DNA of 64,000 nucleotides, from positions 37,786-101,785 of the forward strand of contig DHKB01000034.1 of NCBI GenBank assembly GCA_002407045.1. Direction: 5' to 3'. Within the stretch, counting starts at the first letter, position 1; each line of letters opens with the position of its first letter. A program made the translations under genes and the position numbers. The notes under the pieces were generated by a model. The model did not search any database. It saw nothing but the letters and a program-made list of their open reading frames with translations, and was not told the origin of the DNA. Positions 25,194-30,281 of the stretch are shown here, piece by piece. Source of the DNA: Candidatus Bruticola papionis (lineage in GTDB: Bacteria > Vulcanimicrobiota > Xenobia > Xenobiales > Xenobiaceae).

Positions 25194-25236
25194 TAAAAAA
25201 ACGGAATGTTAATTCATGCTAGCATTCCGTTTTTTA
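25194..25236. terminator. Bidirectional rho-independent terminator (A7 - ACGGAATG ... CATTCCGT - T6) between convergent pilin-like gene and small ORF
   Basis: A perfect 8-bp stem with a 14-nt loop is flanked by A7 and T6. Confidence 0.75.
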
Positions 25237-25252
25237 TCTGTGTTTTGTCTTT

Positions 25253-25468
25253 TTATTCTTTTGAGCGTCGCCTAGCTTGCCAAAGACGTTCAAACTCAGC
25301 AGCTTTAGCTTCTCGTTGAGCGCGTTCGTCTGCTGGTAACAAATCCTTGATGTCGCTTTTGCTTAAAGACGCGATTTCACTCTCTCGACGCAAAGCTACA
25401 GTATCTTCAGAAGCAGCGGCAGCCGCCTCCTCTAATGTTATTTCAGCTTGATTTTGTTGTTCGCTCAT
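25253..25468 (-). CDS. Small acidic helical protein (71 aa) translationally coupled to the ART-like gene; candidate immunity/chaperone/antitoxin
   Basis: The ATG lies 3 nt after the ART gene's TAG stop, with GAGG ~9 nt upstream. The protein is charged and low-complexity helical (EEAAAAASED...AQREAKAAEFERLWQARRR). Confidence 0.5.
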   Translation of the reverse strand: MSEQQNQAEITLEEAAAAASEDTVALRRESEIASLSKSDIKDLLPADERAQREAKAAEFERLWQARRRSKE

Positions 25469-25471
25469 AAA

Positions 25472-26506
25472 CTAAGCCTCGTTTTTGGGCACATCGCCAG
25501 CAAAGACATGAAGTACAAAACCTTTGTTTTTATTATTATACTCGACGCCCATAACGGTCATTTTGGTATCGGGAGCTAACAAGTATTCTTCTTCCTCAGG
25601 GAAAGGAGACAATTTCCTGTCAGCAGCCACATAAATGCCTTTAACATTTTCGCCGATATAAAGCTTCGTGGCCACTTTAGGCTTGTCTTGGAAATTAAAT
25701 TTGGGGTTTATCGTAGTAGACAAGAAGGTTTTGCGTTTAGTTTGTGTACCGGCAATTTTGGCTTCCAGATAAGGGGTAAGCTCTTTAGTGCTACAATCTG
25801 CTTGCATCTGAGCAAATTTGTCATAATCTTCTGAGCTCATATAATTGCGCAACTCAGCTAAGCTGGCTGTACGATAAAGGATGGAACCTTGAGGTACTTC
25901 ATGGCGTTCCAAAGCACCACTCATGCATTCGGTTGCCCGGCGCACAACACCTAAGGGACTCTTTTTGTTGCCAAGCAAATAGCCATTCATTTGCAAATAA
26001 GCTACGCTACAATACGCTTTAATACAGCCGCGCTCAACAATATTTAGATCGGGCCTAACATTAGTTTGATAATTTTCTACTGCGTCTTCAGGCTTGATAT
26101 AAGCATAATCTTTTACCATATCCAGCGAAGGAAGACGATCTGTCTTCATTTTTTTTACACAGAAAATGCCTAAGCCAGCAGACTGAAATTCATCTTCGTC
26201 CATTAAAGCGGTACTAGCGATGTTAACAGTACCTGGAGAAGTTTCTCCTTCTTCGTCCTGGGAGACAATTTGTCCAAGAATTTCTACTACAGCTTCATCA
26301 GAAAGTTGCACTTTATGTTTGTCGGCCGAAGCTGAAGGCAAAGTTGCCTTTTCCCCTAAGCCTTGCTCACTTAAATTCTCCCAAGAGCTTTCAAAGACGT
26401 CGGCAGCAGGCTGCTGAATTGCAGTATTTTCAACGGCTTTGGGAGTACCGTCAACTTTAAAATCATAAGATGGCATGGAAGGCATGCCAACAGAGCTGAT
26501 ATGCAT
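25472..26506 (-). CDS. Putative mono-ADP-ribosyltransferase toxin/effector (R-S-E class, cholera/pertussis-toxin-like catalytic signature in C-terminal half); no signal peptide
   Basis: ILYRTASL (R212) compares with CT 'LYRADS' and PT 'VYRYDS'. FLSTTINP has S263-T-T, 51 aa later. PFPEEEEYLLAP has ExE at 304-307, ~42 aa after that, with the typical hydrophobic-LL-P continuation. Order and spacing match ART region 1 / STS / ExE. Confidence 0.6.
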   Translation of the reverse strand: MHISSVGMPSMPSYDFKVDGTPKAVENTAIQQPAADVFESSWENLSEQGLGEKATLPSASADKHKVQLSDEAVVEILGQIVSQDEEGETSPGTVNIASTALMDEDEFQSAGLGIFCVKKMKTDRLPSLDMVKDYAYIKPEDAVENYQTNVRPDLNIVERGCIKAYCSVAYLQMNGYLLGNKKSPLGVVRRATECMSGALERHEVPQGSILYRTASLAELRNYMSSEDYDKFAQMQADCSTKELTPYLEAKIAGTQTKRKTFLSTTINPKFNFQDKPKVATKLYIGENVKGIYVAADRKLSPFPEEEEYLLAPDTKMTVMGVEYNNKNKGFVLHVFAGDVPKNEA

Positions 26507-28483: not shown

Positions 28484-28739
28484 GTCTTCCTTTATCTTAG
28501 ACGTGAAAGCGTCTAATTTCCGAAAGCGGGAAAGCTCTCCTAGATAAGCGCAAGATCAGCAGTATTTTGCCAAAGTCTAGGGGGGCTTTTCTTATTTTGT
28601 CAATTTAGTAAAAGGTTTTGCTCGATTCGTTAAAAATACACATATTTGTAACTTGAAGTAACGCTCTTAATCTTAAAATGAAACATAAGATAAGGGGTAG
28701 GAGAACTCCAGATACATTTTCGCGAGAGGTTGTTGAAAA

Positions 28740-30206
28740 ATGTTAAATTCTATTAGTAGTGTAAGTCCTATGGCTTACACGGCTCCGACCAGCGGCGTAA
28801 GCGCCACCAAGGTTGATACTGAAGTAAGAGGGCCGGAGTTTTCTTATAATCCTCAGGACGAGTTGGTCATGGATCCTATCACTATCCAGGTGCCCAACAT
28901 CAAAACCAGCAGCAAAAAAGCTCCTGAAGGTGAGCACGTGCGTTTAGCCGATAGAGACGGATTACGCCCCAACAAAGACGGCGAATATGTCTTCCAGCCT
29001 GGCACCCGTCAGTACATCGCTGCCAACACTATGGCCACTATTCAGTCCACCGTCAACGCTATGAGCGAAAAATTCGGTCAGGACATCAATTGGGCTTTCG
29101 GTGAAAAGCAAATTAAGCTTATCCCCGATGGCGGCGTCATGCTCAATGCCTATTATTCTCGCCAGGACGAGTCTTTGAACTTCTTCCATGCCAAAGATCC
29201 AGTCACTCAGCAGCAAGTTTATACCGGAAGCTCCGGCGAAGTTGTCTCTCACGAAGCTGGCCACGCTATTTTAGACGCTATCCGTCCCGGCTTCTTGTCT
29301 TCTTGGCACGCCGATACTAACGGTTTCCACGAAGCTTTCGGCGACTTAACCGCCCTTTACATGTCTAGCCAAAACGACCAAGTATGCGAATTGGCTGCTA
29401 GAGAGTGCGGCGGCGACTTACACAAGCCCAATTGCTTATCTGCTACCGGTGAGCTTTTAGGACGCACTATCAACAATGACGCCGGACGAAATGTAACTGG
29501 CGGCGATCATGTGCGCAGTTTAATTAACGACTTTAAATGGCAAGCCCCTCACACTGTCGATCGCAATCCTTCCGGTACCGATCCCTTAACTACCGAAGTG
29601 CACAGCTGGTCTCGTATTTTCAGTGGTGCTCAGTATGACGTAATGGCCGCTATTACTCAGCGCAACATGGCTGACGGTATGGATGCAGCCGCCGCTATTA
29701 AGTCTGCTGGCAGCGAGAGCATGGATGTTTTAGCTAAAGCCATCAACATGTCTCCTAAGGAGAATGCCACCTATCGCGACATTGCTCTTTGTATGCTCAA
29801 AGCCGACGAAGAAATGGGCGGCAAGAATCACGACATTATCTTGAACTGCATGCAAGAACGCAACATCCTCTTTGAGGGTGACGATACTCCTTCTGGCGTA
29901 TCTATGGCTTCTGTTCCCGCTCACGATCTGACCGTAACCTTAGACGGCCCCGAGTTTGGCAAATTCTCCGGCGCTGAAGTTACTGCCAAAGTATCTAGCG
30001 GTATTGGCGCTATGAATGACAATCCCGGACAAGATCTTATTAACGATATGAAGATGCATATCCAGAATGGATCTATTCTCTATACCGAGCCCAACCAAGT
30101 TGTTGAAAAGAAAGATCTTTTCGACAAGAACGGTAACGCTTACATTGGTGTAGTGCGCTGGACTGACGGCAAAATGACCATCGAAAGAAACACTATGATT
30201 AGCTAA
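28740..30206 (+). CDS. Thermolysin-like (M4-like) zinc metalloprotease, paralog 2; no signal peptide
   Basis: VVSHEAGHAILDAIRPGF...FHEAFGDLTALYMS. The protein is collinear with the upstream paralog over its full length, with a near-identical C-terminal ~50 aa. The ATG has GAGG 9 nt upstream. Confidence 0.6.
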   Translation: MLNSISSVSPMAYTAPTSGVSATKVDTEVRGPEFSYNPQDELVMDPITIQVPNIKTSSKKAPEGEHVRLADRDGLRPNKDGEYVFQPGTRQYIAANTMATIQSTVNAMSEKFGQDINWAFGEKQIKLIPDGGVMLNAYYSRQDESLNFFHAKDPVTQQQVYTGSSGEVVSHEAGHAILDAIRPGFLSSWHADTNGFHEAFGDLTALYMSSQNDQVCELAARECGGDLHKPNCLSATGELLGRTINNDAGRNVTGGDHVRSLINDFKWQAPHTVDRNPSGTDPLTTEVHSWSRIFSGAQYDVMAAITQRNMADGMDAAAAIKSAGSESMDVLAKAINMSPKENATYRDIALCMLKADEEMGGKNHDIILNCMQERNILFEGDDTPSGVSMASVPAHDLTVTLDGPEFGKFSGAEVTAKVSSGIGAMNDNPGQDLINDMKMHIQNGSILYTEPNQVVEKKDLFDKNGNAYIGVVRWTDGKMTIERNTMIS

Positions 30207-30233
30207 TAATAAGCTTAGCTAATTTTGCCGTCA

Positions 30234-30281
30234 TAAAAAATAAGGCTGTCGGAAATATCATTCTGACAGCCTTATTTTTTT
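30234..30281. terminator. Bidirectional rho-independent terminator (A6 - AAGGCTGTC ... GACAGCCTT - T8)
   Basis: A perfect 9-bp stem with a 14-nt loop is flanked by A- and T-runs. It lies between the convergent M4-like paralog 2 and the M16 gene. Confidence 0.75.

Follow-up and report, generated by a model that had tools for sequence, protein, structure and literature searches.

A conserved gene cluster of Candidatus Bruticola encoding a predicted toxin-type ADP-ribosyltransferase and two thermolysin-fold proteases with a shared, putative export leader

The locus and its genes

Candidatus Bruticola is an uncultured gut bacterium of the class Xenobia within the Vulcanimicrobiota (Eremiobacterota). 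Here, we analysed a stretch of 64,000 nucleotides from Candidatus Bruticola papionis (contig DHKB01000034.1 of assembly GCA_002407045.1, positions 37,786 to 101,785; the whole stretch is referred to as the window) and, within it, a block of about 5 kb that encodes a predicted ADP-ribosyltransferase (ART), a protein of 71 amino acids (aa) termed s71, and two metalloprotease paralogs, MP1 and MP2. The ART gene (25472–26506, 344 aa) and the s71 gene (25253–25468) are located on the minus strand, the MP1 gene (27008–28483, 491 aa) and the MP2 gene (28740–30206, 488 aa) on the plus strand, and the divergent ART and MP1 genes are separated by an intergenic spacer of 501 bp (26507–27007). MP1 starts, like all its homologs, with the ATG (27008) rather than the TTG (27002). 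The block lies between two bidirectional intrinsic terminators, T1 and T2, and is made up of three transcription units, namely ART together with s71 on the minus strand and MP1 and MP2, each on its own, on the plus strand. The genes of the wider locus follow each other in the order M3 oligopeptidase, an operon of three pilin-like genes, two more pilin-like genes, s71, ART, MP1, MP2, two M16 peptidases (M16a and M16b) and MTHFR. An earlier note on this DNA had described the ART–71-aa operon, the spacer and the two protease paralogs as a candidate effector or toxin island bracketed by two clean terminators; all of these features are present at the positions it gave, and its statement that the protease genes run against a mostly minus-strand neighbourhood is correct.

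The named relatives of the window's proteins carry the label 'Candidatus Bruticola sp.', and the exact locus and its proteins recur on many gut-metagenome contigs and in the metagenome-assembled genome (MAG) GCA_002313735.1. The analysis of synteny drew on eight further loci that represent no fewer than three Bruticola species (L014/L025, L016 and L019–L023), across which the identity of MP1 ranges from 97% down to 86%.

Two bidirectional terminators at convergent junctions

T1 (25196–25235, both strands) has 16 pairs and a loop of 8, and T2 (30235–30280, both strands) has 20 pairs and a loop of 6; in each, the stem is preceded by an A-tract and followed by a T-tract. They are the top two terminator-like sites in the 12-kb region covered by the terminator scan, with folding energies on the plus and minus strands of −18.8 and −14.3 kcal/mol for T1 and of −28.5 and −24.7 kcal/mol for T2. 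A strict scan of the 64-kb window for perfect stems of at least 7 pairs with an A/T flank returned just three hairpins, T2 among them, which argues that the two sites are not chance matches; T1 was missed solely because its A/T tracts are counted as stem. The existence of the two bidirectional terminators is thus confirmed by both scanning and folding, as are their A- and T-tracts. The stems of 8–9 bp that had been ascribed to them were an understatement, since the G+C-containing cores of 7 bp (T1) and 10 bp (T2) are lengthened by A–T pairs.

The terminators do not, as had been claimed, bracket a single unit. Each closes a convergent gene junction, the place where bidirectional terminators are expected: T1 lies between the pilin-like gene at 24491–25147 (plus strand) and the s71 gene (minus strand), and T2 between MP2 (plus strand) and the M16 peptidase gene at 30341–31891 (minus strand). 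When other Bruticola loci were folded, a hairpin was found at the T1 junction in six of six and at the T2 junction in five of six, L025 having no standout equivalent of T2, and at both junctions the stem sequences are unrelated between loci. As the position is kept at convergent junctions while the stems turn over, T1 and T2 are ordinary operon punctuation, that is, functional elements that do not delimit a unit of inheritance. A second perfect hairpin of 15 bp (30283–30330; arms GGTATTTTGAGCTTT and AAAGCTCAAAATACC) follows immediately after T2; it lacks a U-tract on both strands and is present in L019, L021, L022 and L023.

Vertical inheritance of the block

Within the genus, the proposed accessory nature of the 5-kb block is not borne out. 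In a presence/absence comparison, the block was syntenic in every Bruticola locus recovered, occupying the same place between the same neighbours in eight of the eight other loci, which is essentially the pattern that the earlier note had named as refuting an island. The pairwise synonymous rates (dS) of MP1 and MP2 are 0.42–0.78, compared with 0.36–0.99 for the flanking M16 and MTHFR genes, and ratios of nonsynonymous to synonymous rates (dN/dS) of 0.01–0.05 indicate very strong purifying selection on both proteases. Purifying selection acts on ART and s71 as well (dN/dS of about 0.05–0.14), yet their amino acids change 3–10 times faster than those of the M16b and MTHFR genes. In the comparison of base composition and codon usage, ART and s71 are flank-like and the proteases alone deviate, with a G+C content at third codon positions (GC3) of 0.52–0.54 against about 0.37 for their neighbours. 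A shift towards C-ending codons is, however, found in protease-family members at 55 of 70 loci, from genomes with a GC3 anywhere between 0.2 and 0.8, so that it is a property of the gene family and not a mark of recent transfer. We read the shift as expression-linked codon bias rather than foreign origin, and, judged by this bias alone, the protease genes probably rank with those of stronger expression.

It is therefore highly improbable that the block is a horizontally acquired accessory virulence island with limits set by T1 and T2, and we regard that reading as largely refuted within the genus. The deviating GC3 of the proteases and their orientation against the neighbourhood would fit an island, as would the tiny, lineage-restricted ART subfamily and the different contexts in which the block's genes are found beyond the genus. 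These points are outweighed by the identical synteny across at least three species, by the flank-like dS with strong purifying selection, by the flank-like composition of ART and s71 together with the family-wide nature of the protease codon shift, and by the position-conserved placement of T1 and T2 at convergent junctions. Features of mobility are also missing: no integrase or transposase was found among the window proteins scanned, the repeat search revealed no direct or border repeats flanking the block (the only long repeats are the protease paralogs themselves), the only tRNA genes of the window lie at 61751–61905 and none is near the block, and the ART catalytic domain has zero matches in phage or plasmid collections. 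The earlier note was accordingly right in reporting neither integrase nor direct repeats and in not seeing an obvious mobile element. Its suggestion of an effector or host-interaction role stands in part, inasmuch as the ART is of toxin type, has intact catalytic residues, changes fast and belongs to a narrow host-associated lineage; the accessory module does not.

A distinct family of thermolysin-fold proteases

MP1 consists of an N-terminal leader (residues 1–26), a catalytic core (about residues 30–390) and an extra C-terminal domain (about residues 395–491). MP2 is 62% identical to MP1. The dS between the paralogs has reached saturation and every Bruticola species has both of them, pointing to an ancient duplication. 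In an alignment of 57 sequences, N138-A139, H173-E174-x-x-H177, E200-x-x-x-D204 and H291 are invariant, so that an HExxH motif and the downstream glutamate zinc ligand in ExxxD are both in place. The N-A, HExxH, ExxxD and histidine elements together form the active-site set of thermolysin, the type enzyme of family M4, and the proteins have the two-lobe thermolysin fold. MP1 and MP2 match neither Pfam M4 nor M36 above the gathering score and have no NCBIfam or PADLOC match, and a precomputed PF02128 tag is attached to some homologs only. The designation 'M4-like' in the earlier note is hence appropriate for fold and mechanism (thermolysin, M4/M36), although the family itself is distinct. On sequence and fold, MP1 and MP2 are predicted to be zinc metalloproteases of an uncharacterised, Xenobia-wide family with the thermolysin/fungalysin fold. 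In a PDB sequence search with MP1 and the family profile, nothing was recovered except weak similarity to angiotensin-converting enzyme at its HEAxGD motif.

A total of 350 relatives of the MP proteins were recovered from 5.8 billion proteins, and the named ones nearly all carry the label Xenobia, Eremiobacterota or Vulcanimicrobiota. In 185,579 species genomes, 562 relatives were found, with several per genome among the loci kept, and the recovered protease loci are labelled almost without exception as Xenobia, Eremiobacterota or unclassified bacterium. The family thus appears to be core to the whole class Xenobia. Distant relatives of the protease core without a signal sequence and with 25–33% identity are encoded on replicons of Rhizobium, Sinorhizobium, Microvirga and Embleya. 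Two of these, with 25–27% identity, are located on plasmids of Rhizobium leguminosarum (L097, 5794–7575) and Microvirga (L098, 6037–7596). The Rhizobium copy is annotated as 'serine protease' and has DUF1837, an S1/P1 nuclease, a metallohydrolase, an AAA ATPase and a metallophosphoesterase as neighbours, an annotated neighbourhood that looks like one of the defence type.

A third protease paralog is encoded elsewhere in Bruticola. It is adjoined by a conserved three-gene operon coding for a tetratricopeptide-repeat (TPR) protein of ~675 aa, an ATPase of ~480 aa with Clp_N, AAA_2 and ClpB_D2-small domains, and a protein of ~700 aa (709 aa) with a signal peptide. The operon is found at L179 (11645–17359) and L024 (111–5546) and also in L034, L036, L050 and L064; in L034 it adjoins a member of the protease family and in L024, from the rumen, a cluster of the order MP3–ART–MP1. 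The operon adjoins genes for proteases and ART in three genera and is a candidate functional partner of the proteins with the leader described below.

The spacer upstream of MP1

In an alignment of nine loci, the ART-proximal half of the spacer is poorly conserved, and the protease-proximal part is conserved from about position 26775. This part begins with an AT-rich block (26775–26829, plus strand) that ends in a TACAAT hexamer resembling a −10 element (26821–26826), and we infer that it is a candidate promoter of the MP1 gene, although it is not listed by a consensus promoter scan. The block is followed by a putative 5' leader RNA of MP1 of about 180 nt (26830–27007, plus strand) with a long central hairpin, a second hairpin at 26956–26976 and a GAGG ribosome-binding site. 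The central hairpin is kept by compensatory changes (16 of 43 predicted pairs are changed on both sides among seven sequences), which is modest evidence, and in one species (L023) ~100 nt of the 5' leader region are missing. No Rfam family was found inside the spacer, either with an E-value threshold on the block or with the gathering threshold on the whole window, for which the results outside the spacer were sub-threshold matches and two tRNAs at 61.7–61.9 kb. It is plausible, from conservation and predicted folding, that what had been noted as a long regulatory spacer is the promoter and structured 5' untranslated region of the MP1 gene. Also within the spacer, a segment of 34 nt (26698–26731) consists of two adjoining 17-mers, each with a 94% match near or at the 3' end of s71 (25246–25262 and 25355–25371; one inverted, one direct); these matches may be due to chance or may be the trace of an old rearrangement.

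The ART and its small partner

The ART protein comprises a leader with a disordered region (residues 1–122) and an ART domain of the C3/C2 type (about residues 123–344). It matches the Pfam family PF03496 (ADPrib_exo_Tox) with 70.3 bits against a cutoff of 23.4 (1.8e-19), and R212, S263-T264-T265 and E305-x-E307 are invariant among its homologs; E-x-E is the signature of the arginine-modifying members. In an AlphaFold2 (AF2) model, residues 123–344 are confidently predicted and residues 1–122 have predicted local distance difference test (pLDDT) scores below 50. Foldseek matches the model to C3bot2 (3.6e-12, TM-score of about 0.7 on the target length) and further to C3stau, Plx2A, Certhrax, VIP2 and CDTa, and the sequence identity to any solved ART is at most 25%. 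The model and motifs identify the protein as a predicted single-domain, arginine-type (R-S-ExE) and C3/C2-like ADP-ribosyltransferase of the toxin type. The subfamily is small, with 17 word-sharing relatives and 11 representatives at E<1e-30 among 1.84 billion sequences, and its members with a name or placement come from gut and rumen Xenobia. In the rumen relative RUG807 (L024) the ART gene is again arranged divergently beside the MP1 ortholog, and in L030 the ART adjoins a member of the protease family, so that the linkage of ART and protease recurs beyond the genus.

The s71 protein is acidic (8 kDa, isoelectric point 4.9), has the conserved core RRESEI..SL..DI.DLLP and matches no Pfam, NCBIfam or PADLOC family. 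It is encoded in all Bruticola loci and is confined to Bruticola. The TAG stop codon of ART is followed by TTT and the ATG of s71 (25466–25474), and as the two genes are in one frame with a gap of 3 nt, they are probably translationally coupled. A natural read-through fusion of ART and s71 (P0122, 417 aa) is found in one metagenome. No homolog of s71 is encoded downstream of ART in L024, where there is no open reading frame (ORF), or in L030, where the downstream gene encodes a 219-aa protein that starts with a lipoprotein-like signal sequence.

The s71 protein may be a chaperone, a regulator or an inhibitor. If it were an inhibitor, ART and s71 might form a toxin–immunity or toxin–antitoxin pair directed at rival bacteria, in which s71 would neutralise ART in the producer and the proteases would be unrelated neighbours. 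The tight coupling of the two genes in one frame and the retention of s71 with ART in every Bruticola locus are in keeping with such a pair, as is the finding that the best PDB sequence match of ART is Lmo0066 (8za7_B, 2.9e-5), a structure listed in the fold search as an ART–ADP-ribosylhydrolase (ARH) toxin effector–immunity pair. However, an obligate partner should travel with its toxin, and the absence of s71 after the ART genes of L024 and L030 counts against an obligate immunity protein; in addition, s71 is far below the size of an ADP-ribosylhydrolase and resembles no family, and no trafficking domain of polymorphic toxins (LXG, PAAR or Rhs) was found. We therefore consider a toxin–immunity pair unlikely.

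A shared N-terminal leader

ART, MP1 and MP2 all begin with a short, polar and almost uncharged leader of the form M-x-I-S/N-S-V/I-N/G, which is followed by a disordered linker. The leader and linker of ART are encoded at 26141–26506 (minus strand, residues 1–122) and begin MHISSVGMPSMPSY, MP1 begins MIGSINSVNYTAYSAP and MP2 begins MLNSISSVSPMAYTAP. Homologs of ART begin MNINSVNM.., MQISSVNYTPALAP.. or MISSLNSLSF.., and the ISSVNYT of one of them resembles the INSVNYT of MP1. Within the window, the motif is found at the true N-terminus of these three proteins only. In both families, the first 8–10 residues are conserved, and the following 20–120 are variable and disordered; in the proteases, residues 1–26 are disordered and the fold begins at about residue 30. 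Residues 2–15 of the leader contain 35–40% S/T/N/Q, 1% D/E and 0–5% K/R. The longest hydrophobic run in leader proteins is at most 7 residues (median 3–4) and, for the first 40 residues of the MP proteins, at most 6. No Sec, Tat or lipoprotein signal and none of the propeptides of secreted relatives is present in ART, MP1 or MP2, whereas the adjacent M16 peptidases have classical signal peptides.

Scored against the protease leaders, the ART N-termini reach 21.5, compared with 14.4 ± 2.9 for 610 other N-termini from Xenobia, of which 0.5% reach the ART median. The top scorers of this background, as identified by Pfam, are a subtilase, clostripain-like proteins and another M4/M36-like protein, and similar starts are found on a second subtilase and on a patatin-like phospholipase. 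Both leader-bearing subtilases have prodomains of the fervidolysin type, and several leader-bearing proteins of the clostripain family flank a protease gene. A census with a position-specific scoring matrix and a regular expression for the motif likewise recovered S8 and C11 enzymes.

In two environmental Vulcanimicrobiota loci (L043, 1626–16000, and L072, 2941–14036), a gene of the protease family lies amid three clostripain-family genes, and the L043 cluster also has a subtilase-like gene. All genes of these clusters encode a polar leader with a proline-rich linker, and their GC3 is 0.79–0.85, against 0.66–0.78 in most neighbours. In a low-GC rumen Xenobia locus (L075, 1–5829; also in L077), a flagellar export operon encodes FlhB, FliR, FliQ, FliP, FliN, FliM and a rod protein, and a 582-aa relative of the protease family without the C-terminal domain is encoded at 9794–11542. 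Of the candidate export systems considered, double-glycine leaders (peptidase-containing ATP-binding cassette transporters, PCAT), Tat, prepilins, LXG proteins of the type VII secretion system (T7SS), the C-terminal domain of the type IX secretion system (T9SS) and the DUF4157 of extracellular contractile injection systems (eCIS) were rejected, as their defining motif or domain is missing. The literature on secretion in Xenobia or Bruticola yielded nothing relevant.

Working model and alternative fates of the proteins

With moderate confidence, we conclude that the block is a fixed, vertically inherited chromosomal cluster of Candidatus Bruticola whose enzymes are of the kinds predicted above and would be exported by means of the shared leader. 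The leader itself is, in our judgement, about evenly poised between being and not being a targeting signal specific to the lineage, with Sec-independent export as its most likely purpose. Under this model, MP1 and MP2 would be abundant extracellular endopeptidases that serve as digestive or attack enzymes, and ART, a putative fast-evolving effector of host-associated Xenobia, would be exported and aimed at a non-self target. Only tentatively do we extend the proposal to the whole class, where a Sec-independent leader possibly marks a secretome of thermolysin-like proteases, subtilases, clostripain- and patatin-like proteins and C3-like ART that is exported through a flagellar-type gate or an undescribed apparatus.

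Several observations weigh against the model. The export apparatus was not found, and export is read here from sequence. Leader-like N-termini occur at 4.6 per Mb, compared with 6.6 per Mb in control loci, in a regular-expression count that left out the protease and ART families; as the raw count is not enriched, the case for the leader rests on the kinds of proteins that carry it and on its conservation within families. The 13 ART values in the comparison of N-termini are not independent, the sequences being related to each other. The proteases are also encoded on the strand opposite to most window genes, and the GC skew of the window is negative; if, as the skew suggests, the minus strand is the leading strand, such a placement would be unusual for very highly expressed genes. 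Finally, the distant relatives of the proteases in Proteobacteria and Actinobacteria have no signal, and one of them lies in the defence-type-looking neighbourhood, making a cytoplasmic role possible.

The last point leads to the view that the proteins stay inside the cell, as regulated cytoplasmic proteases comparable to intracellular subtilisins, and that the shared N-terminus is a propeptide, a degron or a feature of translation initiation. The lack of a Sec or Tat signal would then need no further explanation, the TPR, Clp_N–AAA_2 and 709-aa proteins encoded beside the third paralog could act as an unfoldase or quality-control partner, and the codons for I, N and S are A/T-rich and therefore of the kind favoured near starts. 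Against this view stands the retention of the leader in high-GC Xenobia (GC3 of about 0.8), which implies selection at the protein level. The leader is, moreover, carried by proteins of the thermolysin/fungalysin type, by subtilases with fervidolysin-type prodomains, by clostripain and patatin relatives and by a C3-like ART, families that are classically extracellular, and a constitutively well-expressed thermolysin-like endopeptidase in the cytoplasm would need an inhibitor, of which none is evident. An intracellular fate is hence rather unlikely.

A different question is by which route export would occur, and one answer is that the leader is a type III (flagellar-type) signal, so that ART and the proteases use a flagellar or injectisome-like gate. 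In composition and disorder only, the leader has the ~20 polar, disordered and acid-poor residues of a type III signal: it is rich in Ser, Thr, Asn, Ile and Pro, nearly without acidic residues, and is followed in ART by a region that completes a disordered N-terminus of 122 residues. The N-termini of YopE and ExoS are type III signals which the leader appears to resemble. The repertoire of leader-bearing proteins, with a patatin-like phospholipase and an ART, is effector-like, the motif pattern also caught a genuine flagellar hook-type N-terminus in control loci, FliP is found in several Xenobia MAGs, and in rumen Xenobia the genes for FlhB, FliP, FliQ, FliR, FliM and FliN lie about 4 kb from a protease-family gene. 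On the other hand, searches that started from a FliP of rumen Xenobia recovered many FliP genes, but none attributable to Bruticola among the 120 best matches or in a Joint Genome Institute (JGI) sample with this locus, two data sets that say little about whole genomes, and no type III gene is located in the window. In addition, s71 is unlike the known chaperones of roughly 130 aa, and the protease family seems universal in Xenobia, which flagella maybe are not. We regard type III export as improbable, and retain Sec-independent export by means of the leader as the preferred, if finely balanced, reading.

Neighbourhood of the block

The pilin-like cluster on one side of the block (19930–25147) has three minus-strand genes (801, 340 and 180 aa) and two plus-strand genes (140 and 218 aa); three of the five proteins match the Pfam prepilin N-methylation motif. 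Its proteins are 52–74% identical to those of L021, compared with 96–98% for the flanks (96–97% for the M3 peptidase and MP1), and its dS to L019 is 0.1–0.3, compared with 0.6–1.0 for the flanks. This cluster, and not the block, is the truly strain-variable segment, a pattern that suggests allelic replacement by recombination.

The window also encodes numerous proteins for peptide processing (17977–19791, 30341–33247, 50228–51982 and 58692–61583), namely the M3 oligopeptidase, two tandem pairs of M16-family peptidases (four in all) and one family-5 solute-binding protein. The gene of the latter lies about 20 kb from the block, and its family includes oligopeptide-binding proteins. This richness fits a proteolytic lifestyle, and the three conserved transcription units, if their enzymes are exported, would sit in a neighbourhood devoted to proteolysis. 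At one end of the window (4–11984), two very large ORFs encode proteins of 1570 and 2408 aa, the first of which has acyl-carrier, ketoreductase and dehydratase domains, indicating a gene cluster of the polyketide-synthase type. The only other apparent ORF with a protease-like GC3, at 61646–62026, is spurious, as it overlaps tRNA genes at 61751–61824 and 61835–61905 (minus strand).

Significance and comparison with known systems

Regarded as an island, the finding is ordinary, in that a conserved chromosomal cluster is flanked by routine terminators. Its significance lies in the proteins. The analysis defines a large uncharacterised family of thermolysin-fold proteases that is core to a nearly uncultured class from primate and ruminant guts and other environments and is apparently strongly expressed, and it identifies a host-associated C3-like ART without a known delivery module. 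Together with several classically secreted families of the class, the ART and the proteases carry one shared leader in place of Sec signals. Should this leader serve as an export signal, it would allow the secretome of Xenobia and their lifestyle, be it proteolytic foraging, predation or interaction with a host, to be predicted and would make the export route amenable to testing. The enzymes belong to known kinds, of which they are new members or variants; only the shared leader might be genuinely novel.

T1 and T2 are like other Rho-independent bidirectional terminators at convergent genes in their G+C-containing hairpin, flanking A- and T-tracts and placement, the sole oddity being the extra 15-bp hairpin without a U-tract after T2. 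The proteases are best compared with thermolysin (MEROPS M4) and fungalysin (M36) of clan MA(E), with which they have a sequence identity of merely 11–14%. In contrast to the pre-pro layout of M4 and M36 enzymes, the family has neither a Sec signal peptide nor an N-terminal propeptide of the FTP/PepSY type, and it has features of its own, a conserved EFSYNPQD strand near the N-terminus and an additional C-terminal domain of ~95 residues. Among type III effectors, ExoS and ExoT of Pseudomonas belong to the same Pfam ART family and have a non-cleaved N-terminal export region. The Bruticola ART likewise has a polar, disordered N-terminal region, no Sec signal and a small adjacent gene; it differs from them in being without a GAP domain, and known effector chaperones are twice as large as the neighbouring 71-aa protein. 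With the C3 exoenzymes and the binary toxins C2I, iota Ia, CDTa and VIP2, the ART has the fold, PF03496 and the R, S-T-T and E-x-E motifs in common. Unlike the C3 exoenzymes it has no Sec signal, unlike the binary toxins it has no N-terminal adaptor domain, and no gene for a B or binding component is located in the window. Where the known C2 and C3 toxins carry their delivery module, the Bruticola ART has a disordered N-terminus of 122 residues that begins with the Xenobia leader.

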